From: Pseudomonadota bacterium
GTDB taxonomy: Bacteria > Pseudomonadota > Gammaproteobacteria > Steroidobacterales > MnTg04
Assembly: GCA_022572885.1 (NCBI GenBank)
Contig: JACZVC010000002.1
Coordinates: 63,135-127,134 of the forward strand
Length of the DNA stretch: 64,000 bases
Reading direction: 5' to 3'
Of the stretch, positions 16,731 through 39,350 are shown in pieces. Every line of letters starts with the position of its first letter. Position 1 is the stretch's first letter. The translations under genes and the position numbers were made by a program. Below the pieces are notes generated by a model. That model ran no database searches. It had not been told where the DNA came from and saw nothing but the letters and a program-made list of their open reading frames with translations.

Positions 16731-16741
16731 GCGGGTTCGCA

Positions 16742-21122: not shown

Positions 21123-21363
21123 AAAGTTACTTGCTTCATTTAAAGTAAACTCAAACGCAGCCCCGCGCGACGCCCTTTTCCCTCGGTCTTCGTTCAAATA
21201 CGAACCGCAGATAGCTGAATAGTTCCGCCCGTTGTCGTAGAACTTTAACCGCCAATCCAGTCTAATCAAGGGAGTGTAGCTTACTGGCCAGCAAAGCGTT
21301 CTTGTGGCCAGGGGAAGCGGGCGAGTATCCTTGGGGCCGCGGGCAATCGCGGAAATGGTTGAT

Positions 21364-21382
21364 TTGGCTTTTTGCAAGCCAA
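21364..21382. promoter_or_regulatory. Inverted repeat immediately upstream of the first gene of the 21396-33915 operon
   Basis: TTGGCTT-tttgc-AAGCCAA is a perfect 7-bp inverted repeat ending 14 nt before the ATG at 21396. It could be an operator or a 5'-UTR hairpin. Function is unknown. Confidence 0.3.
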
Positions 21383-21395
21383 GGGCAGGCTCACT

Positions 21396-24478: not shown

Positions 24479-24493
24479 GCAGACTTCCATACG

Positions 24494-26869
24494 ATGAGGG
24501 AATATCAAAAGGGGCAGCACTTATCTGGCCGTTTCACCCTGATCACTCTCTTGGGGCAGGGGGGCATGGGTGAAGTCTGGCTGGCCAAAGACGACCACCT
24601 TGCGCGTGATGTAGCGCTGAAAATCCTGAGCCCCGCATTGGCCGCAAACCCGGCCATGGTTGAACTGTTGCGCGACGAATGTCGCCTGACCCGACAAATG
24701 GTGCATCCCAACATCGTTCGGGTTCATGAATTCCACAGCGATGGCGACAGCCACTTTATCTCCATGGAATATGTCGAGGGAGACAGCCTGGAAGCGCTGG
24801 CTGGCCGCCATCATGAAGTCTGGCTGCCGGTGTTGCTACCGGCGCTGGATGCGCTCGAATACGCACACCAGGCTGGCATGGTGCACCGCGATATCAAGCT
24901 CAGCAACGTGTTGTACACCGCCAACGGGGAGGTCAGGCTATGCGACTTTGGCATCGGCGGGATTATCGGCAAGCAAAGCGATGCATTTCCTGGCGGGTCG
25001 CCGTTTTCGGCCAGCCCCCAGCAGCTTGATGGTCAGCCAGGTTCGATCGGCGACGATATTTACGCGGTTGGCGCGATGATCTACGCCTTGATGTCCGGGA
25101 AGCCTCCCTTTTATGCGGACCCGGACCAGAAAAAGATTGCCGGCCAGGTGCCGCCGCCGCCGAAGACGGATTACCCACCGCCGGACGGGCTCGTGGAGTT
25201 GGTGATGCGCATCCTGGCCAAGGACCCACTGGAGCGGCCCGATTCGATCGGTGAGGTGCGGGAACTGCTTGCCGACATCACTGGCGTCAGTTCGGCCACC
25301 ACGCGGCCACCCGGTGAGTTGGCCAGCACCGGCAGCGGTACCGGCAAAATCGTAGCGATTCGACGGCAGCACAATGTGCCCGGAAGCGACCGGCCAGGAT
25401 CAGGCCAGGAAGATCTGCCGAGCAGATCCTGGCTGCCCGGTCTGGCGATGGCCCTGCTGTTGCTCATTGCTGCGGTGGTGTTCCTCTACCTGCCCAGCCA
25501 GGTTGCGAAGCGCGAGCCGGTGCCCGGAGTTGAAATTCAATGGCCGACCGATGAGATCGCCGAGGAGCAGCCCCCGGCTGCAGTTGCCGATACTCCATCC
25601 TCTGCCGATAAGCGGCTCGCGCCTTACGAACAGGCGCAGGCGACCCGCGACCGCGAGGAAGCGGAACTCCTGGTGGCGCGGCTGCTGCGCCGGCAGATTG
25701 CCCTGGAAGACCAGGCGGTTCATTTGTGGGCCGGCGATGAATTCAATGCGGCGGTTGAGCTGGTTCGGAGCGCCGACAGCCTGTTCCACAAGGATGACTA
25801 TGCCAGCGCGCTGAACGCCTATCAAACCGCGCTGGATGAAATCGACCGTCTGTCAGGGCAGGTTGACGGCGTATTGAATGCTGCGCTCGAGGACGGCGGA
25901 CAGGCGTTGCTCGATGGCGATCCGGAGACAGCGCAACTGAATTTTGAACTGGCCGCGGCGATCGATCCGGACAACCTCGATGCTTCACAGGGTCTGAGCC
26001 GAGCGGCCACTGTCGAACAGGTCCTGGCGCTGATGGCGGTGGCCGAGGCAAAGGCCGCGGATGGCGATTTGTTGGGCGCGAAGCAGAGCTACCAGGAATT
26101 GCTGGCCATCGACGCCGAATGGCAGCCGGCAAAGACAGCGTTGGGGCAACTGAATCGCAGCCTGGCGATGCAAAATTACAGCAGGCAGATGTCCGCCGGC
26201 TTCGCCAGCCTGGCCGACAACAGACTGCATAGAGCCCGGGACGCATTTCGGTCGGCTTTGCGAATGAGACCGGGTTCGGAAGACGCCCAGGATGGCCTTT
26301 CCCAGGTCGAGGCGGCGATAAAACTGGCCGAAATTTCACGCTTGCGGACGCAAGCGGAAGCGTACGCCGTTGTTGAGCAATGGCCGCTGGCGCTCAACGA
26401 TTATCAATCCGCTTTAAAGCTCGATCCGAATCTTGTTTTTGCCCGCGATGGAGAAGCTCGCGCACAGAAAATGGTTCGTATCGACAAGGAATTCGCGCTC
26501 TACGTGGTGCAACCCGATCGGCTGGGAGAGGACAACGTTTACCAGGCGGCCTTGGGATTCCTCGAACAGGCTCGTTTGCTGGCCGACCCGGGACCACGTT
26601 TGCAGGCCCAGTTGCTCCAACTCCAGGTTCAGCTCCAGGTTGCACGAATCCCCGTCAGGGTAGACCTGGTCTCGGATCAAATGACGGAAGTATTCATAAA
26701 CCGGATTGGCAAGATCGGCACATTTGCCAAGCACGCGGTGCGACTGGTACCGGGTAAGTACACGCTGATCGGTACACGCGACGGTTATCGTGATGTTCGG
26801 CAGCAACTGGTAGTCCAGCCGGGCATCTCGCCGGAGCCGGTACTGATCCGTTGCGAGGAAAAGATTTGA
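24494..26869 (+). CDS. Hanks-type Ser/Thr protein kinase - TM - periplasmic TPR-like region - C-terminal PEGA-like beta domain
   Basis: GQGGMGEVWLA, VALKIL (catalytic Lys), VHRDIKLSNVL and DFGIG motifs. TM is LPGLAMALLLLIAAVVFLYL. TPR-like helices follow. The C-terminus VRLVPGKYTLIGTRDGYRDVRQQLVV is PEGA-like. Confidence 0.88.
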   Translation: MREYQKGQHLSGRFTLITLLGQGGMGEVWLAKDDHLARDVALKILSPALAANPAMVELLRDECRLTRQMVHPNIVRVHEFHSDGDSHFISMEYVEGDSLEALAGRHHEVWLPVLLPALDALEYAHQAGMVHRDIKLSNVLYTANGEVRLCDFGIGGIIGKQSDAFPGGSPFSASPQQLDGQPGSIGDDIYAVGAMIYALMSGKPPFYADPDQKKIAGQVPPPPKTDYPPPDGLVELVMRILAKDPLERPDSIGEVRELLADITGVSSATTRPPGELASTGSGTGKIVAIRRQHNVPGSDRPGSGQEDLPSRSWLPGLAMALLLLIAAVVFLYLPSQVAKREPVPGVEIQWPTDEIAEEQPPAAVADTPSSADKRLAPYEQAQATRDREEAELLVARLLRRQIALEDQAVHLWAGDEFNAAVELVRSADSLFHKDDYASALNAYQTALDEIDRLSGQVDGVLNAALEDGGQALLDGDPETAQLNFELAAAIDPDNLDASQGLSRAATVEQVLALMAVAEAKAADGDLLGAKQSYQELLAIDAEWQPAKTALGQLNRSLAMQNYSRQMSAGFASLADNRLHRARDAFRSALRMRPGSEDAQDGLSQVEAAIKLAEISRLRTQAEAYAVVEQWPLALNDYQSALKLDPNLVFARDGEARAQKMVRIDKEFALYVVQPDRLGEDNVYQAALGFLEQARLLADPGPRLQAQLLQLQVQLQVARIPVRVDLVSDQMTEVFINRIGKIGTFAKHAVRLVPGKYTLIGTRDGYRDVRQQLVVQPGISPEPVLIRCEEKI

Positions 26870-29331
26870 CTGCCGATGGCGATAAGGAAGCCGGTTTTTC
26901 CGAATTGTTTCTGGTGGTCGATGAATCCGGCCGGGTTGCCATGGCCCCCGCCGCGCCGGCGGATGAACAGGCAATACTGGCCAGGTTTTCCGCAACGGTC
27001 GGGCAGGTCCGGGTTTGCGTTCAATCTGCGGCGGTTCCGGTGTTGTGCAATGGCGCAAGGCTGACCGAGGCGCGGGTACTGAAAAACGGGGATCGACTCC
27101 GCGCCGGCGATCTGGCTTTGAATTTCGTTGTGGACGGTCGTGGCGGAATTTTGTACCAGCAGGCCGCGGACGAAAACGCGACCCTTCCCCCCGGTAGTAA
27201 CGAAGCGCAAGAGAAAAAAGTCTGGTTGCTGTTGGCGGGCCCACGAGACGAAGGCATCAGCGAGGAGATCCGGCTGCCGGCGGCGGATCAGACCGGCACG
27301 AAAATCTCGCCCGGGCGGTACCTCAAAAGTGCAGATACCGGCAGCGGAAAAAAACGCCTGGCGGTGTTGCCACTGGCAATCGGAGGGGTTTTCGTTTTGC
27401 TGGGCCTGGTCGCCGGTTTTATGTTTTCGGCAACGGCAGTCCGCATCGTCATCGATCCGGCGCCTGACAGCATCGACGTGGATGGCAAATGGGTTAGCCT
27501 GGAACTCGGGGGCCGTTATCTTCTGCTGCCTGGGAAAGCCAGGATCAGCATACAAAAATCGGAATATTACCCTTTGCAAGAAACCTTTGAGGTTGAACGA
27601 AAGGCCAACCAGGAAGTGTCTTTCCGGTTGACCAGATTACCCGACCTTTTTGAGATTCTGAGCGAACCTGCCGGTTCCGCATCCGTGCAAATCGATGGGA
27701 AACCGGTGGGTCGGACCCCTTTGACAGAGTTGGTCCTGCATGCGGGTGAGCATGAACTGCTGGTCACGGCGGAGCGGTTCCTGGATTATCGCGAGACGGT
27801 TCAGGTGGCAGGCGGTGGCAAGCGCAAGGTGATCACCGTCAATCTGCAACCGGCCTGGGCAAAGGTGGAACTCATTACAACGCCCGCCGGCGCCCGGATT
27901 TTCGTGGACGATCAGGAAATTGGCAGCACACCATTGTCGGTGGAGATGCTGCAAGGCTCACGACAACTAAGGATCAGCAAGACCGGTTTCAAAACCTGGC
28001 GGGAAAACATCAAGATAACCGCCGGAGAACATCAGAGGCTGCCGATAATACTGACCAGGGCCGATGGCAAGGTGGCCATTCGTACAGATCCGCCGGGCGC
28101 AAGCGTAACCATCGATTCGCAGTATCGCGGGCGTACGCCATTGAACATTGCGCTGGCCCCGGATCGGGAATATCAGGTGACCTTTAGCTTGTCTGGTTAT
28201 CAGAAAGCGTCCCGCAGCATCTCCGTACGCTCCGATCGGGATGCCAGCGTGCTGGTCAATCTGCGTGCTTTGCTTGGCATGGTTGATATTCGCAGTGAGC
28301 CCGCCGGTGCCACGATAAAAATAGACGGAGTCGAGCGCGGCCAAACCAACCTGAAGCTGCAGTTGTCTGCGCTGCCGCACCTGGTCGAGTTTTCCAAACC
28401 TGGCTATGCACCGTATCACGCCAGGGTGACGCCCAGACCAGGTTTCGAACAACAGCTCGTTGCCCGGCTGAGGACGCTGGACCAGGCTCGCTGGGATGCG
28501 ATACCGACGACCATAAAAACCGCTCTCGGCCAGTCGCTCAAGCTGGTGCGCGGGGGCAGGGTGGATATGGGTGCCCCACGCCGCCAGATGGGCAGACGCG
28601 CCAACGAAATTCAGTATCCGGTGAAACTGGTGCGCGCATTTTACCTCGGCACGCACGAGGTCACCAATGCGGATTATCGCCGCTTCCAACCGGAGCATAA
28701 ATCGGGCGCCGTGAAAACGACCAGTTTGAACCAGGGCAGCCATCCGGTCGTGCAGATAAGCTGGCAGGATGCCGTAAAATTTTGTAACTGGCTGAGCAAA
28801 AAGGGCGGCTTGCCAGCCGCCTATATAGAAAAGGACGAAAAAATGGTGGCGGTCAGCCCGCTGAATACCGGGTACCGTTTGCCGAGCGAAGCCGAGTGGG
28901 CTTTCGCGCAGCGAATGGCGGATGACGGCGTCAGGAAAATGTATCCGTGGGGAGATGCGCTGCCGCCCGATGACGGTTCGGGCAACTTTGCCGATGTCTC
29001 GGCGAGACCCGTTTTATCCGCGGTAATCGAGAAATACGACGACCAGTATCTCGCCACCGCGCCGGTGGGGCAATTCGATGCCAATGTGGCAGGCTTTTAT
29101 GATCTTGCGGGTAATGTCGCCGAATGGACGCATGACTACTATTCTGCGGATCCATTGATGACCGGGCAGCTTACTATCGATCCGTTCGGACCGGTCAACG
29201 GGGAGTATCATGTGGTCAGGGGATCCAGCTGGACATCGGCCGAGATAAGCGAGTTGCGGGTCAGCTATCGGGATTACGGCAGCGAACCCCGACACGATCT
29301 CGGCTTTCGACTGGCACGATACCTTGAATAA
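26851..29331 (+). CDS. Membrane protein: N-terminal cytoplasmic (possibly degenerate FHA-like) region - TM - about 5 PEGA repeats - C-terminal FGE-sulfatase/SUMF1-fold domain lacking the catalytic Cys pair
   Basis: TTG starts at 26851 or 26866, the latter overlapping the kinase stop as TTGA. PEGA repeats include SEPAGSASVQIDGKPVGRTPL, TTPAGARIFVDDQEIGSTPL, TDPPGASVTIDSQYRGRTPL and SEPAGATIKIDGVERGQTNL. FGE-fold motifs are YLGTHEVTNADYRRF, HPVVQISWQDAVKFCNWL, YRLPSEAEWAFA, NVAEWTHDYY and GFRLARY. Where true FGEs carry RGGSWxCxxxxC, this protein reads RGSSWTSAEISELRVSYR, with no Cys. Confidence 0.82.
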   Translation: MRGKDLTADGDKEAGFSELFLVVDESGRVAMAPAAPADEQAILARFSATVGQVRVCVQSAAVPVLCNGARLTEARVLKNGDRLRAGDLALNFVVDGRGGILYQQAADENATLPPGSNEAQEKKVWLLLAGPRDEGISEEIRLPAADQTGTKISPGRYLKSADTGSGKKRLAVLPLAIGGVFVLLGLVAGFMFSATAVRIVIDPAPDSIDVDGKWVSLELGGRYLLLPGKARISIQKSEYYPLQETFEVERKANQEVSFRLTRLPDLFEILSEPAGSASVQIDGKPVGRTPLTELVLHAGEHELLVTAERFLDYRETVQVAGGGKRKVITVNLQPAWAKVELITTPAGARIFVDDQEIGSTPLSVEMLQGSRQLRISKTGFKTWRENIKITAGEHQRLPIILTRADGKVAIRTDPPGASVTIDSQYRGRTPLNIALAPDREYQVTFSLSGYQKASRSISVRSDRDASVLVNLRALLGMVDIRSEPAGATIKIDGVERGQTNLKLQLSALPHLVEFSKPGYAPYHARVTPRPGFEQQLVARLRTLDQARWDAIPTTIKTALGQSLKLVRGGRVDMGAPRRQMGRRANEIQYPVKLVRAFYLGTHEVTNADYRRFQPEHKSGAVKTTSLNQGSHPVVQISWQDAVKFCNWLSKKGGLPAAYIEKDEKMVAVSPLNTGYRLPSEAEWAFAQRMADDGVRKMYPWGDALPPDDGSGNFADVSARPVLSAVIEKYDDQYLATAPVGQFDANVAGFYDLAGNVAEWTHDYYSADPLMTGQLTIDPFGPVNGEYHVVRGSSWTSAEISELRVSYRDYGSEPRHDLGFRLARYLE

Positions 29332-29346
29332 GCGGAATCTTGGAAG

Positions 29347-29625
29347 ATGAATAAAAAGGTCTGGCTGTTAACCTTGGGGGCGCTCGTATCGGCACAGTTT
29401 CTTTTTGCGCCGCGGCTTGCCGCGCAGGATTATGATGCCGAGCCACCGCCTGAGCAGGAGGCGCGCGAAGAAACGGTCCCGGCCGATCCTGGCGGGGAAT
29501 CGTCGGCTGAGGAGGATTCGAAAATCAGGCAGGATTCTGCGCAAACGATTGACGATCTGGACAGTTTTGTGCCCAGCGTAGAGATTTCCAGCGACTTGTC
29601 CATTTCCTATCCAGTAGATATCTGA
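29347..29625 (+). CDS. Small secreted acidic protein (92 aa)
   Basis: Signal peptide MNKKVWLLTLGALVSAQFLFAPRLAAQ, then an acidic mature part ending FVPSVEISSDLSISYPVDI. Sits 15 nt after the previous gene and 17 nt before the MotA/ExbB-like gene. No family recognised. Confidence 0.55.
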   Translation: MNKKVWLLTLGALVSAQFLFAPRLAAQDYDAEPPPEQEAREETVPADPGGESSAEEDSKIRQDSAQTIDDLDSFVPSVEISSDLSISYPVDI

Positions 29626-29642
29626 ACAGACCAGGGGTAGAC

Positions 29643-30440
29643 ATGACACGACGATGGCCAGTTGAATTTCTTTACCAGATATTTTCCCTGATTGTCGCGG
29701 TGATCGTCGTGCATGCGACCTATGTATCGATGATCAGACCGCAAGCCGATGCCATATTGCTTGAGCGGGAAATCCTGATGGAGCGGGACGCGCTCTACGT
29801 TCCGCCACGATCCCTGTACGTCATCATCAGGGATTTCGAGCAGGAAACCTGTTTTATCCTGATGCTTTGGGCATTCGCCTTGATGGGCTACAAGGCCGTG
29901 GCAACCAGCAAGGAGCGCAGTTTTGTGTTCGAGAAACTGATCGATGTCGGCGAAGGCATGAGCATCCTGCCGGAAGATACCCGCGAATACGCCAGATCGC
30001 TGGAGGCCATGGGTCCTGAACAGCAGCGCCGGCTGTTGCCGCGCGCGTTGCTGACGGCCCTGCACCGGTTCCGCTCGACCAAAAGCATTCAGGATGTATC
30101 CACGGCGGTAAAAAATATCTGTGATACGGAGTATGAGCGGATGGACACCGAGTTATCGATGGTGCGCTATCTCGCCTGGGCAATCCCATCGGTCGGTTTT
30201 ATCGGCACCGTGCGTGGCATCGGGCAGGCGCTGGGTCGAGCCAACGAGGCCGTGGCTGGCGATATCAGCGGCGTGACCCAGTCACTGGGCGTCGCCTTTA
30301 ATTCGACTTTTGTCGCCCTCGTTATCAGCATCGTCCTGATGTTTTTGTTGCATCAGTTGCAAGAAGCGCAAGAACGGCTGGTTCTCGACTCACAGAACTA
30401 TGTCGATGAGCAACTGATACGGTACCTGCAGGTTCGATAA
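29643..30440 (+). CDS. MotA/TolQ/ExbB-family proton-channel protein
   Basis: Has several predicted TM helices. The signature PSVGFIGTVRGIGQAL matches TolQ/ExbB GL(F/L)GTVWGI. The following GVAFNSTFVALVISIVLMFL matches the final TM of the family. Confidence 0.8.
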   Translation: MTRRWPVEFLYQIFSLIVAVIVVHATYVSMIRPQADAILLEREILMERDALYVPPRSLYVIIRDFEQETCFILMLWAFALMGYKAVATSKERSFVFEKLIDVGEGMSILPEDTREYARSLEAMGPEQQRRLLPRALLTALHRFRSTKSIQDVSTAVKNICDTEYERMDTELSMVRYLAWAIPSVGFIGTVRGIGQALGRANEAVAGDISGVTQSLGVAFNSTFVALVISIVLMFLLHQLQEAQERLVLDSQNYVDEQLIRYLQVR

Positions 30441-30448
30441 TCCCGGAG

Positions 30449-31804
30449 ATGTCATTGTCTGATCTGGTACTGGAAATCAACGATATCGGTCTTGCTGTCA
30501 GCGATGGCAAGCGAACGCTGTTGTACAGCCCGGCTTGCGCGCTGCTTGACGGCAATCATATCGTGGTCGGCAAGGAGGCAATTGCTAACTCCAGGCTCAG
30601 GCCGTTGTGGACCAACAACCGTTTCTGGAGCCGCCTCGACCAGGAGCCACTGGCAAACCCATCGGGTCGTTTCCAGACCAATGCGGATCTGGCGCACGCG
30701 CATCTCGAACATATCTGGCATGAGCTGAGCAGACCTGCGGATAGCCGACTGGTCATCGTGGTTCCGAGCACCTGGGATCAGGCGCAGATGGGCTTGTTGC
30801 TGGGGATTACCGCGGATCTGAATATTCCGGTCAGCGGGATGGTCGATTCCGCGGTTGCGGCTGGCGTGTCCCTGGACCCGGATGTTCCGGGTTTGCACCT
30901 CGATCTGCAACAGGGAAAATTTGTACTGACTGAATTGGAGGGCGGTCCGCAGCTTTCGCGTAAGAGTGTTTTCGTCGTCTGCGAAACAGGACTGTCCGCG
31001 ATCAGGGATGCCTGGGCCGATATTATCGCCGACGTTTTTGTTCGCCAGACCCGCTTCGATCCCATGCATGTAGCCAGGACCGAGCAACAACTATTCAACA
31101 AGCTGGATGGCTGGCTGGCCGATATCGAAGCACAGGGAAGCGCGGCCCTGGAAATGAACGCGGGTGAAAAATCCTATACCGTGCAGTTGACCGGCGATCA
31201 GCTTTTGCCGGCGAGTTTGTCCGTCTATCCGCAAATCGTTCAGCAAATCAGGCCCCGGGCCAAGGGCATACTTGCGCTCAGCCATCGGCTGGCTGATTTC
31301 CCTGGCCTGAAGGACAGTCTTGCCCTGATCGCTGGTCTTGAGCTCAGATGGCTGGATGAAAGTGCGGCAGCGCGAGGGGCGCTTGCCCAGACCGCCGTAT
31401 ATGCGGCGGATCCGGATACGCAGGACGTCACTTTCCTGACCAGCCTGCCGCTAGCTGCGGACTCTTCGAGCGCAAACGCCTCCGTGGCGCATGATTTATT
31501 ACCGAGCCACCTTCTGTATCGTGCGCGCGCCTATCCCCTGGACAAGGGGCCGCTGGTGCTTGGGGCAGACCCAAAATCCTCCTCTGACAGGACGATCACG
31601 CTGGTCGGCATACTGGATGGCGTGTCCCGGCAGCATTGCACGATAGAACAGGTGAACGGGCGGACCAGGGTCGAAGATCATTCAAGTTACGGGACCTTTG
31701 TCAATGACCGAGCGGTTAATGGTTCCGCGGATCTGGTCCTCGGCGATGTCATTCGCATGGGCTCTCCGGGCGAAACCGCGCAACTGATTGGCCTGAGCAA
31801 ATAA
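30449..31804 (+). CDS. Cytoplasmic protein: degenerate Hsp70/actin-fold N-terminal region + canonical C-terminal FHA domain
   Basis: The FHA domain reads [41 protein letters not shown]...LGDVIRMG (SRxH and S-x-x-GT-x-VN motifs). The N-terminus is collinear with Hsp70 NBD landmarks but has lost the Gly-rich phosphate loops. [12 protein letters not shown] corresponds to [50 protein letters not shown] corresponds to [39 protein letters not shown] corresponds to VFDLGGGTFDVSIL. Confidence 0.65.
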   Translation: [451 protein letters not shown]

Positions 31805-31805
31805 A

Positions 31806-32903
31806 ATGGCGCGACGGAAGAGACCGGTCAATGTATTCAATCTGGCCTTTCTGGATGTGATGTCGTGCGGCTTTGGAGCGGTCATCCTGGTTTTCCTGAT
31901 CATCAATCATTCGACCGAGAGGAACAAAGCAGAGGTCAACGTCGAGTTGTTGTCAGAGGTCGAGCGAATCGAAGAGCAGATTCTCGAGGGGGATGAATAT
32001 CTTATCCAGGTCAAGAACACCGTCAAGATTCTGCAACAGAAGAACACGGCTACCGATGGTCTTGCCGATACTGTCGAGGACAACCTGCAAAAAATTCGCG
32101 TGGAACTCGCGAGACTCGATCAGGATTCCCTCGCGGCCGAGGACAGCATCAACAAATTGAAGTCGGATCTGCAGGCACAGGAAGTGGAACGCCGCCGGCT
32201 CGAAGGGGGCGTTGAAGAGGGTGAGCGCAAAGGTGAGAATATTCGCTCTTTCATAGGCGAAGGCAACCGTCAGTATCTGACCGGGATGCAGATGGGCGGG
32301 CAGCGGGTGCTGATTCTCCTCGACGCGTCGGCGAGTATGCTCGATGAGACTATCGTCAATGTCATACGCCGCAGAAACATGCGCACGGAACAAAAACTCG
32401 CTGCGAGAAAGTGGCGCAGGGCGGTCAGGACAGTGGACTGGCTGGCGGCACAGATTCCACCCGGCAGCCAGTTTCAAATCTATACCTTTAACACGGCTGC
32501 GACCCCGCTGGTCGAAGGGACCCGCGGCCGCTGGCTGGCCGCGGGAGACGGCAGCGATCTTAACCGTGCGGTCGAGAACCTGGGTCATGTGGTGCCCGAA
32601 AAAGGCACCAGCCTGCACGCGGCGTTTCAGGTGATTAATTCGCTGAGCCCGCGCCCCGACAACGTATTCTTGCTGGTCGATGGCCTGCCGACCCAGGGCG
32701 AAAATATCAAGAAGCAAGGGGTCGTTACCGGCAGGCAGCGGGAACGATTGTTCAGGCGGGCCCTGCGTATCTTGCCCGCCAATATTCCGGTTAATGTCAT
32801 ATTGTTTCCGATGGAGGGCGACCCGGCCGCTGCCTCCGAATACTGGCAACTGGCGCAGGTAACCAGTGGCTCGTTTCTGAGTCCGTCACGAGACTGGCCG
32901 TAG
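31806..32903 (+). CDS. ExbD/TolR-like N-terminal TM segment - coiled coil - vWA domain protein (1 of 2)
   Basis: The N-terminus MARRKRPVNVFNLAFLDVMSCGFGAVILVFLII resembles ExbD INVTPFIDVMLVLLIIF and TolR INIVPLLDVLLVLLLIF, including the TM Asp. About 120 aa of heptad-rich sequence follows. The vWA domain has an intact MIDAS start, RVLILLDASASM (DxSxS). Starts 1 nt after the previous stop. Confidence 0.72.
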   Translation: MARRKRPVNVFNLAFLDVMSCGFGAVILVFLIINHSTERNKAEVNVELLSEVERIEEQILEGDEYLIQVKNTVKILQQKNTATDGLADTVEDNLQKIRVELARLDQDSLAAEDSINKLKSDLQAQEVERRRLEGGVEEGERKGENIRSFIGEGNRQYLTGMQMGGQRVLILLDASASMLDETIVNVIRRRNMRTEQKLAARKWRRAVRTVDWLAAQIPPGSQFQIYTFNTAATPLVEGTRGRWLAAGDGSDLNRAVENLGHVVPEKGTSLHAAFQVINSLSPRPDNVFLLVDGLPTQGENIKKQGVVTGRQRERLFRRALRILPANIPVNVILFPMEGDPAAASEYWQLAQVTSGSFLSPSRDWP

Positions 32904-32913
32904 GAGGGCTGGT

Positions 32914-33915
32914 ATGCGCAAGCGCAAATACACAGAAGGAATCAGCATCGCTTTTCTCGATGTCATCGCTTGCGGATTTGGCGCGGTAATCCTGATGCTG
33001 ATCCTGACCAAGGTTTTTGAGCCGATCATCATTGAAGAAACCGCGATAGAACTGGTGGGCGTACTCGAGGAAAAGGAACGCCGGCTTTACGATATTCGCG
33101 GCGAGACCAGCATCCTCAATCGCGAGATGATTTCGCGCGAGGACCAGTTGTCGGTCGCGCGGCAACGCCTTGCACGCCTACAGGCGGAACTGTCGGAAAT
33201 CCAGGGGCGGTTTGTCGCATCCAGCCAGGATGCCGAGATAAGCAATATTATCGAGGGCAAGCTGGCCGCTGCGCGGCAGTCCCTGACCGCGGAGATGAGG
33301 CGCCTGCTGGTTCAATACAACGAAATAAAAGACAACAACGTGATCGGCGGGATTCCGATCGATAGCGAATACATTATTTTCATTATTGACACATCCGGGA
33401 GCATGTATAACTACGCTTGGCCCCTGATGCTGGAAAAGGTACGCGAAACGCTGGAAGTTTATCCCCAGGTCAAGGGCATACAGGTCATGAACGACATGGG
33501 GCAGTTCATGTTCAGCCGCTATGCGGGCAAATGGATTCCGGACACGCCGGGGCGGCGGCGCGCGATCATCGAGCGGCTGCGCACCTGGAATGCGTTTAGC
33601 AACTCGAGTCCTGTCGAAGGCATCACCAAGGCAATCGCAACCTTCTATGCGCCCGACAAGAAAATCAGCCTGTATGTGTTGGGCGACGAGTTTACCGGTC
33701 GTTCGATCGACGCGGTACTAAAGACCATCCGCGTGATCAATCGGCGGGGCCGCGATGGAAAAAGGCTGGTTCGAATCCATGCGATCGGTTTCCCGGTTCA
33801 ATTCATCAGGCCGGCGCATTTGCAAACCACGGGCATAAGGTTTGCTACGTTGATGCGCCTGATGTGCGAACAAAATGGAGGCACATTTGTGGGCCTGCCC
33901 GATCACCGGACTTGA
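32914..33915 (+). CDS. ExbD/TolR-like N-terminal TM segment - coiled coil - vWA domain protein (2 of 2)
   Basis: The N-terminus is MRKRKYTEGISIAFLDVIACGFGAVILMLILT (same FLDV motif). A coiled-coil region follows, then a vWA domain with YIIFIIDTSGSMYN (DxSxS). RBS aggaggg lies 5 nt upstream. Confidence 0.72.
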   Translation: MRKRKYTEGISIAFLDVIACGFGAVILMLILTKVFEPIIIEETAIELVGVLEEKERRLYDIRGETSILNREMISREDQLSVARQRLARLQAELSEIQGRFVASSQDAEISNIIEGKLAAARQSLTAEMRRLLVQYNEIKDNNVIGGIPIDSEYIIFIIDTSGSMYNYAWPLMLEKVRETLEVYPQVKGIQVMNDMGQFMFSRYAGKWIPDTPGRRRAIIERLRTWNAFSNSSPVEGITKAIATFYAPDKKISLYVLGDEFTGRSIDAVLKTIRVINRRGRDGKRLVRIHAIGFPVQFIRPAHLQTTGIRFATLMRLMCEQNGGTFVGLPDHRT

Positions 33916-33918
33916 TTG

Positions 33919-35001
33919 TTAATCTGACAACAGTTGGTCCAGTATCGCCGTAACCTGTTTTAGCTGGATCCGGTCCATCGCTTTTGGCGAATGAATTCTC
34001 ATGCCCCATCTGGCCTCTGCTACCGAGAGTCCATACTCCGCCTGCAGTGCGTCACGGTATTCGTTGATCAACCACTTTCTGCTGAGGTATGGCGCTGCAC
34101 GGTCGGGGTTGGTCGATGCGAACAAGCCGATAACCGGTGTGCCAACCGCCGTTGCCATGTGCCCGGGTCCGGAATCCGGGCATATCAACGTACTTGCCCT
34201 GGTGAGGATCGCCAGCAATTGACGCAGAGTAGTTTGGCCGACCAGGTTCACCGGCTTGGTTCTGCATTCGCCAACAATCGTTGCGGCCATCGCTTTTTCC
34301 GCTGCTGAGTTTCCACCGCTCAGAATCACTGTAGCCTGCCAGTGATCGGCGGCATGATCGGCAACGGCTGCATATCGTTCGGGCAGCCAGTTGCGATGGT
34401 TCAGTCTTCGGCCTCGCAGCATGCTGCTGCATGGAGAAATCACGACGGACGGTCGATCAGCGGGGATTAACTTTTCAGCAAACCCAAGTTCCTCAGCAGA
34501 CAAGGGAATATCCCAGCGCATCGAGCGTCCTGTTATGCCCAATGTTTCGGCAAACCCGAAGAACGAATCCATGACATGTTGCCGGTTGCGGGCTTTTATT
34601 TGCTCCTTGGTAAATAGCCATTGCAGGTCTCTTGCCCTGGCTCGATCGAAGCCCAGACGCCGATCGGACTTCACCTGCGCGCTTGCCAGATTGGCTCGCA
34701 TCGATGGATGCATGTGCAACAACAGATCGAATCGTCTATTTATGAGCTTTCGACGAAGTTGGCGTAAGCCATTGAAACCTTGAGATTTATCTATAACCAG
34801 AAATTCAATATCCGGGATACTGCCCAGCAGGCCGAATTCTGTACCGCCGATGATCCAGGTGAACCGGGTATGCGGCCAGGCATCCTGCAGCGTACGAATG
34901 ACGGGCAATGCGTGACAACAATCACCGAGCGCCGAGAGTCTGACGATGCAGACAGTCGCCGGCACCATTGCCGAATTGCCGCTGCGGGATTTTACCGGCA
35001 T
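33919..35001 (-). CDS. Glycosyltransferase family 9 (LPS heptosyltransferase-like)
   Basis: VCIVRLSALGDCCHALPVIRTL..., ...SGGNSAAEKA..., ...LICPDSGPGHMATAVGTPVIGLF are typical GT9 landmarks. The ATG at 35001 overlaps the upstream stop (TAATG on the minus strand). An alternative ATG exists at 34968. Confidence 0.8.
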   Translation of the reverse strand: MPVKSRSGNSAMVPATVCIVRLSALGDCCHALPVIRTLQDAWPHTRFTWIIGGTEFGLLGSIPDIEFLVIDKSQGFNGLRQLRRKLINRRFDLLLHMHPSMRANLASAQVKSDRRLGFDRARARDLQWLFTKEQIKARNRQHVMDSFFGFAETLGITGRSMRWDIPLSAEELGFAEKLIPADRPSVVISPCSSMLRGRRLNHRNWLPERYAAVADHAADHWQATVILSGGNSAAEKAMAATIVGECRTKPVNLVGQTTLRQLLAILTRASTLICPDSGPGHMATAVGTPVIGLFASTNPDRAAPYLSRKWLINEYRDALQAEYGLSVAEARWGMRIHSPKAMDRIQLKQVTAILDQLLSD

Positions 35002-36251
35002 TACTCAGCCAAAAATTCTGCCAGGGACAAGCGGGCCGTCAGCACGCGTGACGGCTCGCCGATTTCAGTCCACGCAAACAGCAAGTCACTGCCGGCGCGC
35101 AGCATATGCGGGAAGCCGGAGGAACGCTGGCTGCTGGTCAGGGCAATCTCTTGTGGCTCACCGAGTTCGCCGTTGTGTGCCACGGTTCTGATTTTCAACG
35201 CGGCTTTTCCGTTATCCAGATCATCGAGCCAACTGACCACCGCAAGCCCATCGGCTACCCAACTGACATCCACGCGCCCCAGCGCCGCCCCACTGCTGAT
35301 CGTGACCGCTTCGGAGAAATGCTTGCCGCCGTCGCCGGAGAACGCCAGCCTGACTTGCCTGACATTGCCGGCGCCGGTAAACCAGGCTACGGCCAGCTTG
35401 TCGTTTCGACTATCGATCGCCGGTCCGTTGACCGGGCAACCGGCGATTTGCCAGCCGTCTTTTGCCACCAAGGCGGGTTCGCTCCAGCCACTCTCGGTCA
35501 GCCGGATAATGCTTATGTCGCGGTTCTCGTTCCGGTCCCGGTCACGATAAACCACGGCCACGCCGTTGCTCAGATTTGCCAGGTCGGTCTGGCAGCAATC
35601 GCAAATGAGAGAGTCCAGTTCGATCGATTCAAGGACCTGGCCGCCGCCATCGATCGTGGCCCAACGCAGGGTCATGCCGTTGCTCGCAGCCTCGCCGACC
35701 GACCCGCTCATGTGGTGGCCTCCTGCCTGAGCGGTTTTCCGTCCGTCCAACCAGACCGCGCCGAGAGTTTCGCCCAGCACGGTCATGCTGACAAAACCGT
35801 GTTCGGTCGGGGTGCCGTCATCGTGTGGACTGATCGCGGGTTGCCAGTTCACGCCGTCGCTGGACAATGCAATCTTGACGTCATAGGCATAGGGTCCCCC
35901 GGGCCGTTTTTGCAGCCATTGGGCGGCCCAGAAATCGTTGCCGATGCGGGTTACCGATGGAAAATCTGCCCAGTTGACGAACCAGTCGTCACCGCTTGCC
36001 ACCGTCCGCGGCCGGGACCAGGCCATATCTTCATACACCGAGTAGCGCAGCGTGGCCTTGGCGGCGGTCGATTCGAGCCAGCTTAGAACGATCGTTTCAG
36101 CGGCGCCGGCCTGAAGATGCGGCACCGCGCTGCCAGCGGCGGCGGGCGATTCGATCGGCAGGACTTGCCATTTTTGCCCCGGCGCCTCGCCGGTGCAGGC
36201 CCCCATGGAAAGGGCCAGGAGCAAGATGGTTAATGGATTTCTTGAGCGCAT
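35001..36251 (-). CDS. BNR/Asp-box (sialidase-fold beta-propeller) lipoprotein
   Basis: The ATG at 36251 gives MRSRNPLTILLLALSMGAC (lipobox). Asp-box-like motifs are SSDGVNW and SGDGGKHF, with W/G-rich propeller-like repeats. Family assignment is moderate. Confidence 0.6.
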   Translation of the reverse strand: MRSRNPLTILLLALSMGACTGEAPGQKWQVLPIESPAAAGSAVPHLQAGAAETIVLSWLESTAAKATLRYSVYEDMAWSRPRTVASGDDWFVNWADFPSVTRIGNDFWAAQWLQKRPGGPYAYDVKIALSSDGVNWQPAISPHDDGTPTEHGFVSMTVLGETLGAVWLDGRKTAQAGGHHMSGSVGEAASNGMTLRWATIDGGGQVLESIELDSLICDCCQTDLANLSNGVAVVYRDRDRNENRDISIIRLTESGWSEPALVAKDGWQIAGCPVNGPAIDSRNDKLAVAWFTGAGNVRQVRLAFSGDGGKHFSEAVTISSGAALGRVDVSWVADGLAVVSWLDDLDNGKAALKIRTVAHNGELGEPQEIALTSSQRSSGFPHMLRAGSDLLFAWTEIGEPSRVLTARLSLAEFLAE

Positions 36252-36474
36252 CCGGATTCCCCGCGACAATGACCGACACAGGCAGTATCCTAGCAAAGAG
36301 CGATGGCGAAACGAACAATCTCACGTGCGGGTCGGTGGCCCGCCATTCGATAAGGCATTTTCCCACGGGCTTTCCATGCTTGTGCCGGGGGCAAAAGCGG
36401 GGAGATAGAGGATTAATTGGAAACTGATTTTTGCGGGTGGCATTGTTTACTATGCCGGTGCCTGGTTAGTCGCA

Positions 36475-36861
36475 ATGATCAGTGGCCCGCTGATTCACGA
36501 GGGCGTGCTCGACGAATTGTACAAGGCGCACGCACAGTTCTGGCGACCCGAACTGAACCAGGAGCCACCCGATTTGGCGGCCCTGATGCCGCGCTGGATC
36601 GCCACCGGGCTGATTGGCTCATTTCTCATTGCGGGCGTTTATGGCGTGGTTCGCTCATCCTTTGACGGCGCTGGTTGGCTTAAAGGCCTCAAGTACGGAT
36701 TGGTTTTGTTCCTGATCAGCATATCCTTAGCGCTGGGCTGGTCCGGCGTATTCAATCTTCCCGATGAACTCTGGGTCTGGTGGACATTGGAGTCCCTGTT
36801 TTATTTCCTCGTCGGCGGCATGGCGCTAGGCTGGTTTGCGGATAAATACGCTGCCGCTTGA
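36475..36861 (+). CDS. Hypothetical small membrane protein
   Basis: At least three hydrophobic helices. The open frame continues upstream as KLIFAGGIVYYAGAWLVA with no canonical start, so the true start may be a non-ATG codon upstream of 36475. Confidence 0.5.
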   Translation: MISGPLIHEGVLDELYKAHAQFWRPELNQEPPDLAALMPRWIATGLIGSFLIAGVYGVVRSSFDGAGWLKGLKYGLVLFLISISLALGWSGVFNLPDELWVWWTLESLFYFLVGGMALGWFADKYAAA

Positions 36862-36922
36862 AACCGCTGCCCGCGGTGCGGACGGATTGTTTTCTTCTGT
36901 TTCTCTTCCTGATAAGAGAAAT

Positions 36923-37009
36923 TGGTGCCCAGGGCGAGACTCGAACTCGCACATCCGTAAGGACACGGCGACCTGAACGCCGCGCGTCTACCAATTCCGC
37001 CACCTGGGC
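36923..37009 (-). tRNA. tRNA-Leu (anticodon CAG), class II with long variable arm, CCA encoded
   Basis: The reverse complement reads GCCCAGGTGGCGGAATTGGTAGACGCGCGGCGTTCAGGTCGCCGTGTCCTTACGGATGTGCGAGTTCGAGTCTCGCCCTGGGCACCA. The acceptor stem GCCCAGG/CCTGGGC pairs. The anticodon loop is TTCAGGT. The T-arm is GCGAGTTCGAGTCTCGC. Confidence 0.93.
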
Positions 37010-37121
37010 AGGCAGGGCTGGCGCGATGCGCCAGCAAATGAGGCGCGCACTTTAATGCAAGCGCCAAATACTTGTCAATCGGTCGGTAGATTGTCACGCT
37101 ACCGTCAAGCAGGGAGTGCGG

Positions 37122-39350
37122 ATGGCCACCAAAAAACAATGGAAGGATCGTGATCCCGAAGCAGCGCGGGAAGCCAGTCGCTATCGCTTTCCGATACCCA
37201 GCAGGGCCTTGATCAATCAATCTCTCGAGGATGCCGGCAGACCGCTGAGCCTGCCAGAACTCCATGCCGCGCTGGGCCTGAAAGGGCAACGCGCGCGGAC
37301 CGCGCTGGCCAGGCGGATGGATGCGATGGCCCGCGACGGGCAGGTAATCAGGAACCGCAAGGGACTGTATTGCCTGACCGGCCATTTACCGGTAACCACA
37401 GGCAGAGTCCATGGCCACCCGGATGGATTCGGATTCCTGATCCCCGATAGCGAGGGTGCGCGAGATATTTTTCTGTCGGCACGAGAGATGCGCCAGGTCA
37501 TGCACGGGGATCGGGTAGCGGTCAGGGTGCGGGGCGATGACAGGCGAGGCCGGCCCGAGGGCGTGATAGTCGAAATTCTCGAACGTAAAACCAAAGAACT
37601 GGTCGGCAGGTTTCAACTTGAGCGGGGCAAGGGCTTTGTCATCCCGGACAATCACCGGTACAGCCGGTACATCTCGGTTGCGCCCAGATACCGGAAAGGC
37701 GCCCGACCCGGCCAGGTCGTCATCCTGAAGATCAGCGAACAACCGACCGCGCACGGCCCGGCGCTCGGCCAGGTGCAGAAAATCCTGGGCGAAGTCGATG
37801 ACCCCGGCATGGAAACGCTGATCGCCATCAGCGCGCATGGCTTGCCGAATGCCTGGCCCGAAGCAGTGGCAAGCGAGCTCGCCCGCTTTGGCAAGCGGGT
37901 TCCCGAGGCCGCGAAATATGATCGCTACGATTTGCGCGATACGCCCTTGCTGACCATTGACGGCGCCGATGCCAGGGACTTTGACGATGCCGTGTATTGC
38001 GAAAGGAATGGTGACGGCTGGACGATCCTGGTGGCAATCGCCGATGTTGCACACTATGTAAAACCAGGCAGCGCACTGGACCGGGAAGCGCAACAGCGCG
38101 GGACCTCGGTCTATTTTCCGCGCGAGGTTATTCCGATGCTGCCGGAAATACTCTCCAACGGCCTGTGCAGCCTCAAGCCCAAGGTCGACCGGCTGTGCCT
38201 GGTCTGCGAAATGAAACTGTCGAAACAGGGTAAGGTATTGTCGTCCGAGTTTTATCAAGCGGTAATGCAATCGGCGGCGCGGCTGACCTACAACCAGGTG
38301 GCCGACATCCTGATTCGCAAGAATGCTGCGAGCCGGAAGAAATACCAGCGCCTGTTGCAGCCCCTTTCGGCTTTGCACGATGCCTATCGCGCAATGGCCA
38401 GGGCCAGGCATCGGCGCGGCGCCCTGGAATTCGATATACCCGAGATCAAGGCGGTTTTTGCGAGCGACAAGACGCTGAAAGACCTGGTTGCCTATCCGCG
38501 CAACGACGCGCACCGGATCATCGAAGAGTGCATGATAGCCGCCAACATTGAGGCGGCCCGCTTTATACGCCGAAAACGACGGCCCTTTCTTTATCGTTCC
38601 CATGCCGGGCCCGATCGGAAAAAGATGGCCGATCTGCGGTTGTTTCTTGCCGCAGAGGGTTTGTCGCTGGGTGGCGGGAAAAAACCGACGTCGATGGACT
38701 ACAGCCGTTTGCTGGAGAAAGTGGCGACCCGGGACGATAAAAATCTGATCGAGACGGTGCTGCTGCGTTCGCTGTCCAAGGCGGTCTATGAACCCGACAA
38801 CGCAGGCCACTTCGGTCTGGCGCTGGCGGAGTATGCCCATTTCACATCGCCGATACGCCGATACCCGGATCTGCTGGTGCACCGGGCGATCAAGCACGTA
38901 CTGGCTGGCGGCGAAGCCGGGGAATTCAGCTACACAAAAAAAGAGATGGTCCTTTTGGGACTGCAATGCTCGGCGGCGGAGCAACGCGCCGACGACGCGA
39001 CGCGTCAAGCCATGGATTACCTGAAGTGCGAGTACATGCAGGATAAAATTGGCCAGGTGTTCGCGGCGGTGATATCAGGGGTAACCAATTTCGGTCTGTT
39101 CGTGCAGATTCCTGAAAAACAGATCGAGGGCCTGGTGCATGTCAGTGCGCTGCCGGTTGATTATTATGAGCACGATCCGGCCCATCACACGCTGACCGGT
39201 GAAAAAAGGCGCCTGGAATTCCGCTTGTCGGACGCGTTGCAGGTACGTGTCAGCCACGTTGATATGGACAAAAGAAAGATCGATTTTGACTTGGCAGGCG
39301 ATCCGCCACAGAGAAAATCGCGGAAGCAAAAGCGCGGGCAGAAACGATGA
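37122..39350 (+). CDS. rnr: Ribonuclease R
   Basis: RNB catalytic region (DGADARDFDDAVYCE, ...HFGLALAEYAHFTSPIRRYPDL...), a C-terminal S1 domain and a Lys-rich tail. The ATG at 37122 lies 5 nt after GGGAG. A GTG at 37116 is also possible. Confidence 0.95.
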   Translation: MATKKQWKDRDPEAAREASRYRFPIPSRALINQSLEDAGRPLSLPELHAALGLKGQRARTALARRMDAMARDGQVIRNRKGLYCLTGHLPVTTGRVHGHPDGFGFLIPDSEGARDIFLSAREMRQVMHGDRVAVRVRGDDRRGRPEGVIVEILERKTKELVGRFQLERGKGFVIPDNHRYSRYISVAPRYRKGARPGQVVILKISEQPTAHGPALGQVQKILGEVDDPGMETLIAISAHGLPNAWPEAVASELARFGKRVPEAAKYDRYDLRDTPLLTIDGADARDFDDAVYCERNGDGWTILVAIADVAHYVKPGSALDREAQQRGTSVYFPREVIPMLPEILSNGLCSLKPKVDRLCLVCEMKLSKQGKVLSSEFYQAVMQSAARLTYNQVADILIRKNAASRKKYQRLLQPLSALHDAYRAMARARHRRGALEFDIPEIKAVFASDKTLKDLVAYPRNDAHRIIEECMIAANIEAARFIRRKRRPFLYRSHAGPDRKKMADLRLFLAAEGLSLGGGKKPTSMDYSRLLEKVATRDDKNLIETVLLRSLSKAVYEPDNAGHFGLALAEYAHFTSPIRRYPDLLVHRAIKHVLAGGEAGEFSYTKKEMVLLGLQCSAAEQRADDATRQAMDYLKCEYMQDKIGQVFAAVISGVTNFGLFVQIPEKQIEGLVHVSALPVDYYEHDPAHHTLTGEKRRLEFRLSDALQVRVSHVDMDKRKIDFDLAGDPPQRKSRKQKRGQKR

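Follow-up and report, generated by a model that had tools for sequence, protein, structure and literature searches.

A gammaproteobacterial nine-gene module encoding a TolQ-like channel and two membrane-tethered vWA proteins, a putative ion-driven motor of the cell envelope

Five kinds of ion-driven 5:2 motor have been studied experimentally, namely flagellar stators, the Ton and Tol systems, the gliding/type IX secretion machinery and Zorya, each with its own route for passing energy outwards from the inner membrane, and for MotAB, ExbBD and TolQR relative rotation by ion flow is established. Beside these stands a family predicted in silico in 2025, in which "TPH-vWA" pairs are encoded beside tolQ-like genes; the pairs are mostly heterologous, occur in Proteobacteria and Verrucomicrobia and lack the SHLS (Ser-His-Leu-Ser) motif, and in AlphaFold 3 models the vWA pair sits inside a tolQ-like pentamer, where threonines encircle the Asp residues (Mol Biol Evol 2025;42:msaf138; PMC12204202). 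A heterologous pair, AglQ/AglS, is also part of the Myxococcus AglR5 motor, for which the FHA domain of GltG was modelled on the cytoplasmic face (PMC11761067). Here we describe a locus in a stretch of 64,000 nucleotides from a gammaproteobacterium (assembly GCA_022572885.1, contig JACZVC010000002.1, positions 63,135 to 127,134; the whole stretch is called the window and all coordinates below refer to it), where a gene for a TolQ-like channel protein lies close to two paralogous genes for membrane-tethered vWA proteins. We consider it fairly probable that these three genes encode a motor of the 5:2 MotAB/ExbBD/TolQR class that sits in the inner membrane and is powered by ions, probably protons. 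The plus strand from 29643 to 33915 translates into four open reading frames (ORFs) of 265, 451, 365 and 333 aa:

29643-30440, plus strand: MotA/TolQ/ExbB-family channel protein, 265 aa (Pfam, hidden Markov model (HMM) and fold)
30449-31804, plus strand: cytoplasmic protein of 451 aa with an Hsp70-like (actin-fold) domain at about residues 1-340 and an FHA domain at about 360-440 (Pfam, profile)
31806-32903, plus strand: vWA paralogue 1 (vWA1), 365 aa; basic tail, transmembrane helix with D17, coiled coil, linker and vWA domain (translation, alignment, AlphaFold2 (AF2) model)
32914-33915, plus strand: vWA paralogue 2 (vWA2), 333 aa; the same plan with D16; last gene of the operon (translation, alignment)

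A first-pass annotation of this DNA had described a channel gene followed directly by two vWA genes. The three genes are indeed there, not in direct succession, the 451-aa gene at 30449-31804 standing between them, and the core of channel plus two proved incomplete, as six other genes of the same module are found in 21372-33915. The module comprises nine genes on the plus strand, in the order tail-motif lipoprotein, 408-aa lipoprotein, transmembrane/TPR protein, protein with four PEGA stretches and an FGE-sulfatase domain, small ORF, channel, Hsp70-like/FHA protein, vWA1 and vWA2, and is taken to be one operon because the gaps between its genes are only -4 to +17 bp. In a genome scan with one genome per species at least 583 loci were confirmed, of which 80 were kept for analysis, and tblastn of the window proteins against these 80 loci returned one common gene order.

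The channel ORF carries PSVGFIGTVRGI and matches Pfam MotA_ExbB (PF01618) with E=4.4e-15 and 56 bits, the cut-off being 22.9 bits. Its nearest solved relative by sequence is TolQ (8odt, E=0.0023), with GFIGTVRGI aligned on GLFGTVWGI, and the AF2 monomer model (predicted local distance difference test, pLDDT, 83) gave as best folds in Foldseek TolQ 9ddm, 9k49 and 8vlw (TM-score 0.68), then ExbB, with PomA/MotA weaker; the MotA/ExbB-like identity and the family signature put forward in the first-pass annotation are thus both upheld, TolQ/ExbB being nearest in sequence and in fold. T189 (30207-30209) is aligned with the Thr of GLFGTVWGI and T222 (30306-30308) with the Thr of ALIATAIG, corresponding to the pore-lining threonines T145/T178 of TolQ and T148/T181 of ExbB, and T189, T222 and P182 are each kept in 73 of 73 channel orthologues. 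It is through its closeness by HMM and fold, the GxxGTVxGI motif and both pore threonines that the channel resembles the TolQ-TolR and ExbB-ExbD systems.

Hydrophobic helices of the channel lie at residues 13-31, 69-87 and 217-235, together with a TolQ-aligned helix at about 177-198. The TolQ HMM places channel residues 71-257 on profile positions 27-213, a register that makes helix 69-87 the counterpart of the first transmembrane helix of TolQ; the N-terminus contains Arg/Lys, and the segment after helix 1, as read from the sequence, is net acidic. Hydropathy, charge distribution and HMM register together favour an extra N-terminal helix, and the channel is therefore probably a TolQ-like core with an additional transmembrane helix (13-31) and a four-helix, N-in topology like that of MotA. 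The region without counterpart in TolQ comprises residues 1-68 (29643-29840), that is, the probable extra helix and a 35-residue loop, in which R32, P33, R56, D64, E66, Q67 and E68 are invariant. If periplasmic, this loop could touch the segment just after the vWA helices.

The N-terminus of paralogue 1 is MARRKRPVNVFNLAFLDVMSCGFGAVIL and that of paralogue 2 is MRKRKYTEGISIAFLDVIACGFGAVIL; after the basic tail both read AFLDV(M/I)xCGFGAVIL. The transmembrane Asp codons, both GAT, are those of D17 (31854-31856) and D16 (32959-32961), beginning exactly at 31854 and 32959 as first annotated, and the two proteins share 23% identity over 185 aa (E=6e-11), in keeping with the proposed pair of paralogues with a shared plan of transmembrane Asp, coiled coil and vWA domain. 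Each is 47-60% conserved across phyla. The Asp, which the annotation had regarded as protonatable, is retained by at least 98% of the 79 orthologues aligned for either paralogue, its holders spanning Gammaproteobacteria, Acidobacteriota, Desulfobacterota and Verrucomicrobia. In the curated alignment D17, C21, G22, G24 and A25 of paralogue 1 are invariant, as are F14, L15, D16, C20, G21 and G23 of paralogue 2, and the helix consensus, FSLSFLDxISCGFGAxILL, places a small-residue face (CGxGA) beside the Asp. The transmembrane helices of the two paralogues are nearly identical and their basic N-tails conserved; the Ser-x3-His-x6-Leu-x3-Ser (SHLS) pattern of TonB/TolA is absent from the helix. As in TolR and ExbD, a basic N-tail is combined with a transmembrane Asp at the same helix depth (F-[LI]-D-V-[MI]).

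One transmembrane helix is predicted for each paralogue, with 3.6-4.0 Lys/Arg in the N-tails of about 10 residues, and about 1 Lys/Arg and 3-3.6 acidic residues in the 15 residues past the helix. This charge distribution, by the positive-inside rule, argues for a cytoplasmic N-terminus and periplasmic vWA heads, the orientation that had been assumed from the start. A lone transmembrane helix with an invariant Asp and a small-residue face would need a protein partner, and the only membrane protein that constantly accompanies the vWA helices is the TolQ-like channel, whose gene is present in 75 of the 80 loci, the other five having no upstream flank.

Neither paralogue matches ExbD (PF02472) or OmpA in Pfam/NCBIfam. 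In contrast with TolR and ExbD, a coiled coil of about 100 aa and a vWA domain take the place of the compact periplasmic domain, and two distinct partners that of a homodimer; the replacement of an ExbD/TolR or OmpA-like domain had been recognised in the first-pass annotation. Since the periplasmic part consists of coiled coil and vWA domain, the vWA pair is regarded as a variant and not as an orthologue of TolR, ExbD or MotB. In the AF2 model of paralogue 1 helices occupy residues 41-106 and 109-135, and in each stalk 55-60% of the heptad a/d positions in one register are hydrophobic, against a background of 27-30%; on the strength of these helices and this heptad pattern the coiled coil holds, with a length of about 95-105 residues and not the roughly 120 aa first given. 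The distance from the Asp to the DxSxS motif varies little within a paralogue, the two classes being 154-157 and 141-146 residues, and in paralogue 1 a conserved linker, GxGxRQYLTG, lies between coiled coil and vWA domain.

Pfam vWA matches of the window proteins are under threshold (25.1 and 14.5 bits against 27). The domain at residues 167-360 of paralogue 1 is nevertheless modelled confidently by AF2, with most 10-residue blocks having a mean pLDDT of at least 85, and Foldseek against the PDB returned nothing but vWA domains among the top 50 matches (best E=8e-8), while the vWA assignment of paralogue 2 follows from paralogy and motifs. The motifs read ILLDASASM in paralogue 1 and FIIDTSGSM in paralogue 2, and DxSxS is intact in both, as annotated: in paralogue 1 D173/S175/S177 (32322-32336), T268 and D292 of the metal ion-dependent adhesion site (MIDAS) are all invariant in the curated alignment, and in paralogue 2 D159/S161/S163 (33388-33402) and D258 are invariant. 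Across the 79 orthologues of each paralogue, drawn from 80 genomes, DxSxS is likewise invariant or almost so, which speaks against a chance motif. Both heads are predicted to carry metal-binding MIDAS sites. The C-terminus of paralogue 1, SPSxDWP, is invariant in 24 of 24 aligned orthologues (last codons 32892-32900); the C-terminal residues of paralogue 2 are variable in the alignment consensus, with no such conserved end.

The two vWA genes are adjacent and in fixed order in all 80 loci, and neither was found alone. No ExbD, TolR or MotB gene was found in the operon, in the 64-kb window (Pfam) or in the 80 loci, where tblastn with ExbD, TolR and MotB sequences as queries, run against the window as well, gave no match. 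Homologues of paralogue 1 number at least 7,959 (90%-identity clusters, E<=0.001), and 517 clusters at 50% identity were obtained with E<=1e-30. The family spans at least five phyla, mostly of marine and sediment bacteria: the kept loci belong to Gammaproteobacteria (Halieaceae, Pseudomonadales, Woeseiaceae), Acidobacteriota, Desulfobacterales, Myxococcales and a metagenome-assembled genome (MAG) of the Rhodospirillaceae, and the gene order is kept in Gammaproteobacteria, Acidobacteriota, Desulfobacterota, Myxococcota and the alphaproteobacterial MAG. Cultured carriers are Congregibacter variabilis IMCC43200, Kineobactrum sediminis F02 and Biformimicrobium ophioploci NKW57. A distant member, in a variant form, occurs in Puniceicoccaceae (Verrucomicrobia), where the locus comprises the PEGA/FGE gene, the small protein, the channel, a 499-aa protein, both vWA genes and two extra genes, with no Pkinase match.

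The family predicted in PMC12204202 and that of the window have in common a heterologous pair of membrane-tethered vWA proteins, encoded in tight linkage with a tolQ-like gene and with tolR/exbD absent from the surroundings, a conserved transpore Asp, the lack of SHLS and a threonine ring in the channel, and the presence of our family in Verrucomicrobia agrees with that study. The window matches every listed feature by description, and we file its family with the predicted one. The idea of a vWA-bearing axle is therefore sound and is not new, having been predicted in 2025; the statement in the first-pass annotation that no characterised system has a vWA-headed axle subunit still stands, PMC12204202 being an in-silico prediction. 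Here an Hsp70-like/FHA gene usually lies between the channel and the vWA genes, and neither this gene nor those for the kinase/TPR protein, the PEGA/FGE protein, the small protein and the two lipoproteins appear in the text of PMC12204202, which does not list Acidobacteriota, Desulfobacterota or Myxococcota. New here are the nine-gene module, the optional kinase/FHA layer and a candidate peptide ligand. Full-text literature searches returned no other paper joining vWA domains with stator proteins, and a survey of vWA conflict systems (eLife 2020), which mentions neither TolQ nor ExbB, does not describe the present system.

Comparison with the characterised machines shows partial likeness to several of them. 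The locus differs from Tol and Ton in having no TolA/TonB-type third subunit with an SHLS helix, and in a channel that probably has an extra N-terminal transmembrane helix. With Agl-Glt it would share a TolQ-like pentamer with a heterologous plug pair, an FHA domain on the cytoplasmic face, TPR proteins and a vWA domain in the machine; AglQ and AglS, however, are short and TolR-like, the vWA domain of Agl-Glt is on a separate outer-membrane adhesin, CglB, and no Glt genes are present here. MotA-MotB and PomA-PomB are comparable in their 5:2 logic, in the transmembrane Asp on the dimer subunit and in a C-terminal anchor domain outside the membrane, and the channel may share the four-helix topology of MotA/PomA, whereas its fold match to them is weaker than that to TolQ/ExbB, and an OmpA-like peptidoglycan-binding domain and a flagellar context are both missing. 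In GldL-GldM (PorL-PorM) the dimer subunit is likewise a long rod spanning the periplasm and a protein of the FGE-sulfatase fold (GldK/PorK) belongs to the same machine; GldL, however, is no PF01618 protein of the present kind, the GldM homodimer is built of Ig-like domains and not of coiled coil plus vWA, type IX genes are lacking here and the NCBIfam scan of the window proteins gave no GldL or GldM match. BatA and BatB are also membrane-tethered bacterial vWA proteins, and BatB (3ibs) is among the Foldseek matches, but the usual companions of Bat proteins are a MoxR ATPase and DUF58, and no gene for any of these partners is present here. To our knowledge Bat proteins have no Asp-bearing transpore helix and no linkage to a MotA/TolQ gene. 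On their defining features (family cut-offs and partner genes), Zorya, BatA/B and type IX secretion were each rejected as identities of the locus.

In the machine that we propose, the TolQ-like protein would form a pentameric ring and vWA1 and vWA2 a heterodimeric axle, their Asp-bearing N-terminal helices sitting within the ring as the ExbD, TolR and MotB helices do. Ring and axle would rotate against each other, driven by ions passing the Asp/Thr site. The coiled coils would pair into a periplasmic stalk of about 14-15 nm (95-105 residues at 0.15 nm each), at whose far end the two MIDAS heads, which differ from each other, would lie close to the cell wall or outer membrane and grip a partner encoded in the operon; the small protein with its C-terminal peptide, the PEGA/FGE-sulfatase protein and both lipoproteins are candidates. 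With one side anchored, the opposite side would turn or pull. In this window the Ser/Thr kinase and two FHA-type readers, namely the FHA domain of the Hsp70-like protein and the degenerate FHA-like domain of the PEGA/FGE protein, could constitute a cytoplasmic phospho-switch. If this is true, it would be a further kind of 5:2 motor, in which the axle itself bears the adhesive head and a TonB/TolA-like third subunit is dispensed with. The family is large and multi-phylum, and the module, the candidate ligand, the optional phospho-layer and the cultured carriers make the prediction testable.

Several points weigh against a motor. The assembly is deduced from gene linkage and motifs. A HMMER profile of the 48-residue N-terminus, searched against PDB and Pfam, found no ExbD, TolR or MotB, the matches being chance ones such as NDUFB4, and hhalign of the helix with E. 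coli ExbD and TolR was weak (P=0.021, probability about 2%), its best local alignments setting the paralogue Asp on D25 of ExbD and D23 of TolR; with profile and hhalign matches weak or absent, common descent of the helix with ExbD/TolR is unproven. An ExbD-like partner may be encoded, unlinked, elsewhere in the genome. The channel may have three transmembrane helices instead of four, the AF2 monomer being compatible with either, and the MIDAS Thr of paralogue 2 is not placeable with confidence. The seed of the 2025 family is from Idiomarina loihiensis, the AlphaFold 3 model being of Idiomarina proteins, and no accessions are given, so the window was likened to it by described features. Lastly, about 60% of the related loci are without the kinase and a few without the Hsp70-like gene, from which it follows that the regulatory layer is not essential to the machine.

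The weak helix homology would also suit a static, heterodimeric scaffold in the periplasm like that of PilN/PilO or GspL/GspM, in which the tails would be held by the Hsp70-like protein and the channel would have another partner or sense membrane potential. The order of an actin-fold gene followed by two bitopic coiled-coil paralogues recalls pilM-pilN-pilO, where an actin-fold gene likewise precedes a bitopic pair, and the Hsp70-like gene ends 1 bp before vWA1, the basic N-tails being conserved. Yet the near-invariance of the transmembrane Asp is not what such a scaffold leads one to expect, since we know of no conserved buried Asp in helices of the PilN/PilO type. In L012, L049, L059, L063 and L085, moreover, the Hsp70-like gene is missing while channel, vWA1 and vWA2 stay adjacent, the profile of its N-domain matches Hsp70 only and not PilM, FtsA or MreB, and the tblastn search described above offers the channel no other ExbD-like partner nearby. 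We therefore judge a scaffold unlikely.

The first-pass annotation had left open whether the paralogues form a heterodimer or alternative stators. In the latter case each would be a homodimeric axle, giving two kinds of motor with different heads, and the near-identical transpore helices are in its favour, as either could fit the same ring. A heterodimer is favoured nonetheless: the paralogues keep the same order with short gaps in 80 of 80 loci and never occur singly, the duplication is ancient (23% identity) with both copies kept since before the phyla split and stalk lengths remaining in two fixed classes, and AglQ/AglS provide the precedent for a heterodimer. Alternative stators are accordingly a poor candidate, a little behind the scaffold.

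Of about the same low standing is a gliding or secretion machine akin in its logic to type IX secretion and Agl-Glt, which would move a periplasmic or outer-membrane assembly of the PEGA/FGE protein (GldK/GldJ-like fold) and lipoproteins and is, with regard to output, a narrower version of the motor proposed here. The best NCBIfam match of the FGE-sulfatase domain is GldK/PorK, with GldJ matched too, and the long dimeric periplasmic axle recalls GldM; but GldK reaches 110 bits against a cut-off of 350 and GldJ 32-35 bits against 383-458, FGE-sulfatase domains are common among unrelated periplasmic proteins, and GldL, GldM, GldN, SprA and Glt outer-membrane genes are all missing from the module. 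A vWA adhesin (CglB) and FHA docking do occur in Agl-Glt (PMC11761067), and a gliding role was floated for the other, TolA/TonB-like vWA transducers in PMC12204202.

Zorya-type anti-phage defence, with a MotAB-like envelope sensor coupled to effectors, is very improbable: the channel has a weak PADLOC match to ZorA (E=1.3e-3, about 90 residues) and the kinase matches defence-kinase models, but the kinase matches are generic to the protein kinase fold, the 265-aa channel is without the long ZorA tail, no ZorB-type peptidoglycan-binding domain, nuclease or effector gene was found and no other Zorya model matched, the base composition is like that of the surroundings, the order of the nine genes holds from phylum to phylum, and in this window core housekeeping genes (RNase R, RlmB, heptosyltransferase) adjoin the module.

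Upstream of the channel gene the putative operon contains the following members:

21372-23252, plus strand: lipoprotein (lipobox LTGC) with a variable Ser/Gln/Pro-rich body; first gene of the module, start codon uncertain (translation)
23252-24478, plus strand: lipoprotein of 408 aa; lipobox AGGC with Val in position +2, and a hydrophobic, Gly-rich hairpin at about 293-332 (translation)
24494-26869, plus strand: Ser/Thr kinase (cytoplasmic), transmembrane helix 313-331, periplasmic TPR region and C-terminal beta domain (Pfam)
26866-29331, plus strand: PEGA/FGE protein; degenerate FHA-like cytoplasmic N-domain, transmembrane helix 170-188, four PEGA stretches and a periplasmic FGE-sulfatase (C-type-lectin-like) domain (Pfam)
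29347-29625, plus strand: small secreted protein, 92 aa; signal peptide, variable acidic/Pro-rich linker and conserved C-terminal peptide (pattern search)

The small protein ends at the stop codon with FxPSExIxxDxxVxFPxDI (last 19 residues, the sole conserved part of the protein), here FVPSVEISSDLSISYPVDI at 29566-29622, and an ORF bearing this peptide lies directly 5' of the channel gene in 70 of 72 loci by pattern, the remaining two also carrying the peptide; it is present in the divergent locus L085 as well and is degenerate in the Verrucomicrobia locus L084. The protein was too short for tblastn, which missed it, and belongs to no Pfam family. The C-terminal carboxylate of C3b binds the MIDAS of factor B, and as the peptide has a conserved C-terminus with an Asp at -1 and a free carboxylate, which suits a MIDAS, it is by analogy a candidate ligand of the vWA heads.

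The first lipoprotein carries near its C-terminus the motif DDDIVARQLREAAxxExDPELRxKLWxEY, found with 56-82% identity in 52 loci directly 5' of the next gene, and this tail motif is the sole part of the protein conserved across phyla. Its gene contains a 48-bp tandem repeat in three copies (95% matches) at 21529-21670, and the length of the protein varies among near-identical contigs (618 and 686 aa in two complete calls). The 408-aa lipoprotein is present in 56 of the 80 loci at the same position, with a mean column identity of 48% and a lipobox in 39 of 55 extracted orthologues; it has no Pfam match, and its profile matched no solved structure in the PDB. By the E. coli +2 rule it is predicted to be an outer-membrane lipoprotein.

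The kinase/TPR protein has a Pkinase match (E=5.5e-38), TPR matches and the HRD and DFG motifs; its TPR half occurs in 59 of 60 loci, the kinase half in about 25 of the 60, which makes the TPR part core and the kinase an accessory N-terminal fusion. The PEGA/FGE gene, present in 67 of 80 loci, matches PEGA with E=2.3e-58 (four stretches) and FGE-sulfatase with E=7.8e-45. Its start is TTG 26851 in the ORF list, whereas a public 821-aa product implies the in-frame TTG 26866, which we adopted. Long forms of about 800 aa and short forms of about 690 aa were seen, the FHA-like N-domain being restricted to the long ones.

The 451-aa protein between channel and vWA genes ends in an FHA domain (E=1.7e-10), while the profile of its N-domain matches the nucleotide-binding domains of SSB1 (3gl1, E=1.2e-5), Hsp70 (3kvg, 1.8e-4) and DnaK (8w1m, 1.4e-3) in the PDB. 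The Hsp70 phosphate loop DLGGGTFD is LDxxLHR in its alignment, and with phosphate loops this degenerate ATP turnover is doubtful; the domain may serve as a scaffold. No transmembrane helix is predicted in this protein, and its gene is present in 74 of the 80 loci.

The FHA domain of the Hsp70-like protein is associated with the kinase, being found in 21 of 23 loci with kinase as against 16 of 37 without (Fisher p=2.7e-4). All three cultured carriers are without the kinase domain, and in L085, where both the kinase and the Hsp70-like gene are missing, the lipoprotein, TPR protein, PEGA/FGE protein, small protein, channel, vWA1 and vWA2 are kept. Because the kinase, the FHA domains and the Hsp70-like gene are optional, the core of the machine would be periplasmic and membrane-embedded, with phospho-control as an add-on. 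Many FHA domains prefer pTxx[IV] sites, and a cytoplasmic-loop motif of the channel, RFxxTxxIQDVS (T146-I149 at 30078-30089), has T146 kept in 71 of 73 channel orthologues and Ile or Val at +3 in 73 of 73, so that T146 could, speculatively, be a phospho-site for the FHA domains. Taken to its full extent, the proposal would be that the operon is a complete, phylum-spanning, TonB/TolA-independent trans-envelope machine of a new functional class, in which a proton-driven ring turns or pulls the axle and the MIDAS heads capture the ...FPxDI-COOH peptide or the lipoproteins, under a phospho-switch of FHA domains docked on a pseudo-Hsp70 scaffold, possibly acting at T146-x-x-I149; this we hold as a tentative possibility, well short of the motor itself in likelihood.

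The base composition is even across the operon boundary, and a promoter/terminator scan 5' of the operon gave nothing beyond shuffled expectation. Genes 3' of the module vary among the 80 loci, with no shared downstream order. In the window the stretch 33919-39350, 3' of the operon, holds housekeeping genes, including those for RNase R and an RlmB-type methylase, as well as a 431-aa protein without Pfam match and, on the minus strand, a tRNA-Leu(CAG) at 36923-37009; a heptosyltransferase gene (GT9) lies downstream and is convergent with the operon. On the other side, three successive genes for TPR proteins (559, 507 and 503 aa, the middle one with a TonB_C domain) occupy 15051-19749 on the plus strand, and weakly similar TPR genes are found 5' of the module in about 10 gammaproteobacterial loci and not elsewhere. 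Between these TPR genes and the operon sits a pair of minus-strand ORFs (19760-21377; 250 and 306 aa) which have no Pfam match and are called as genes in public contigs.

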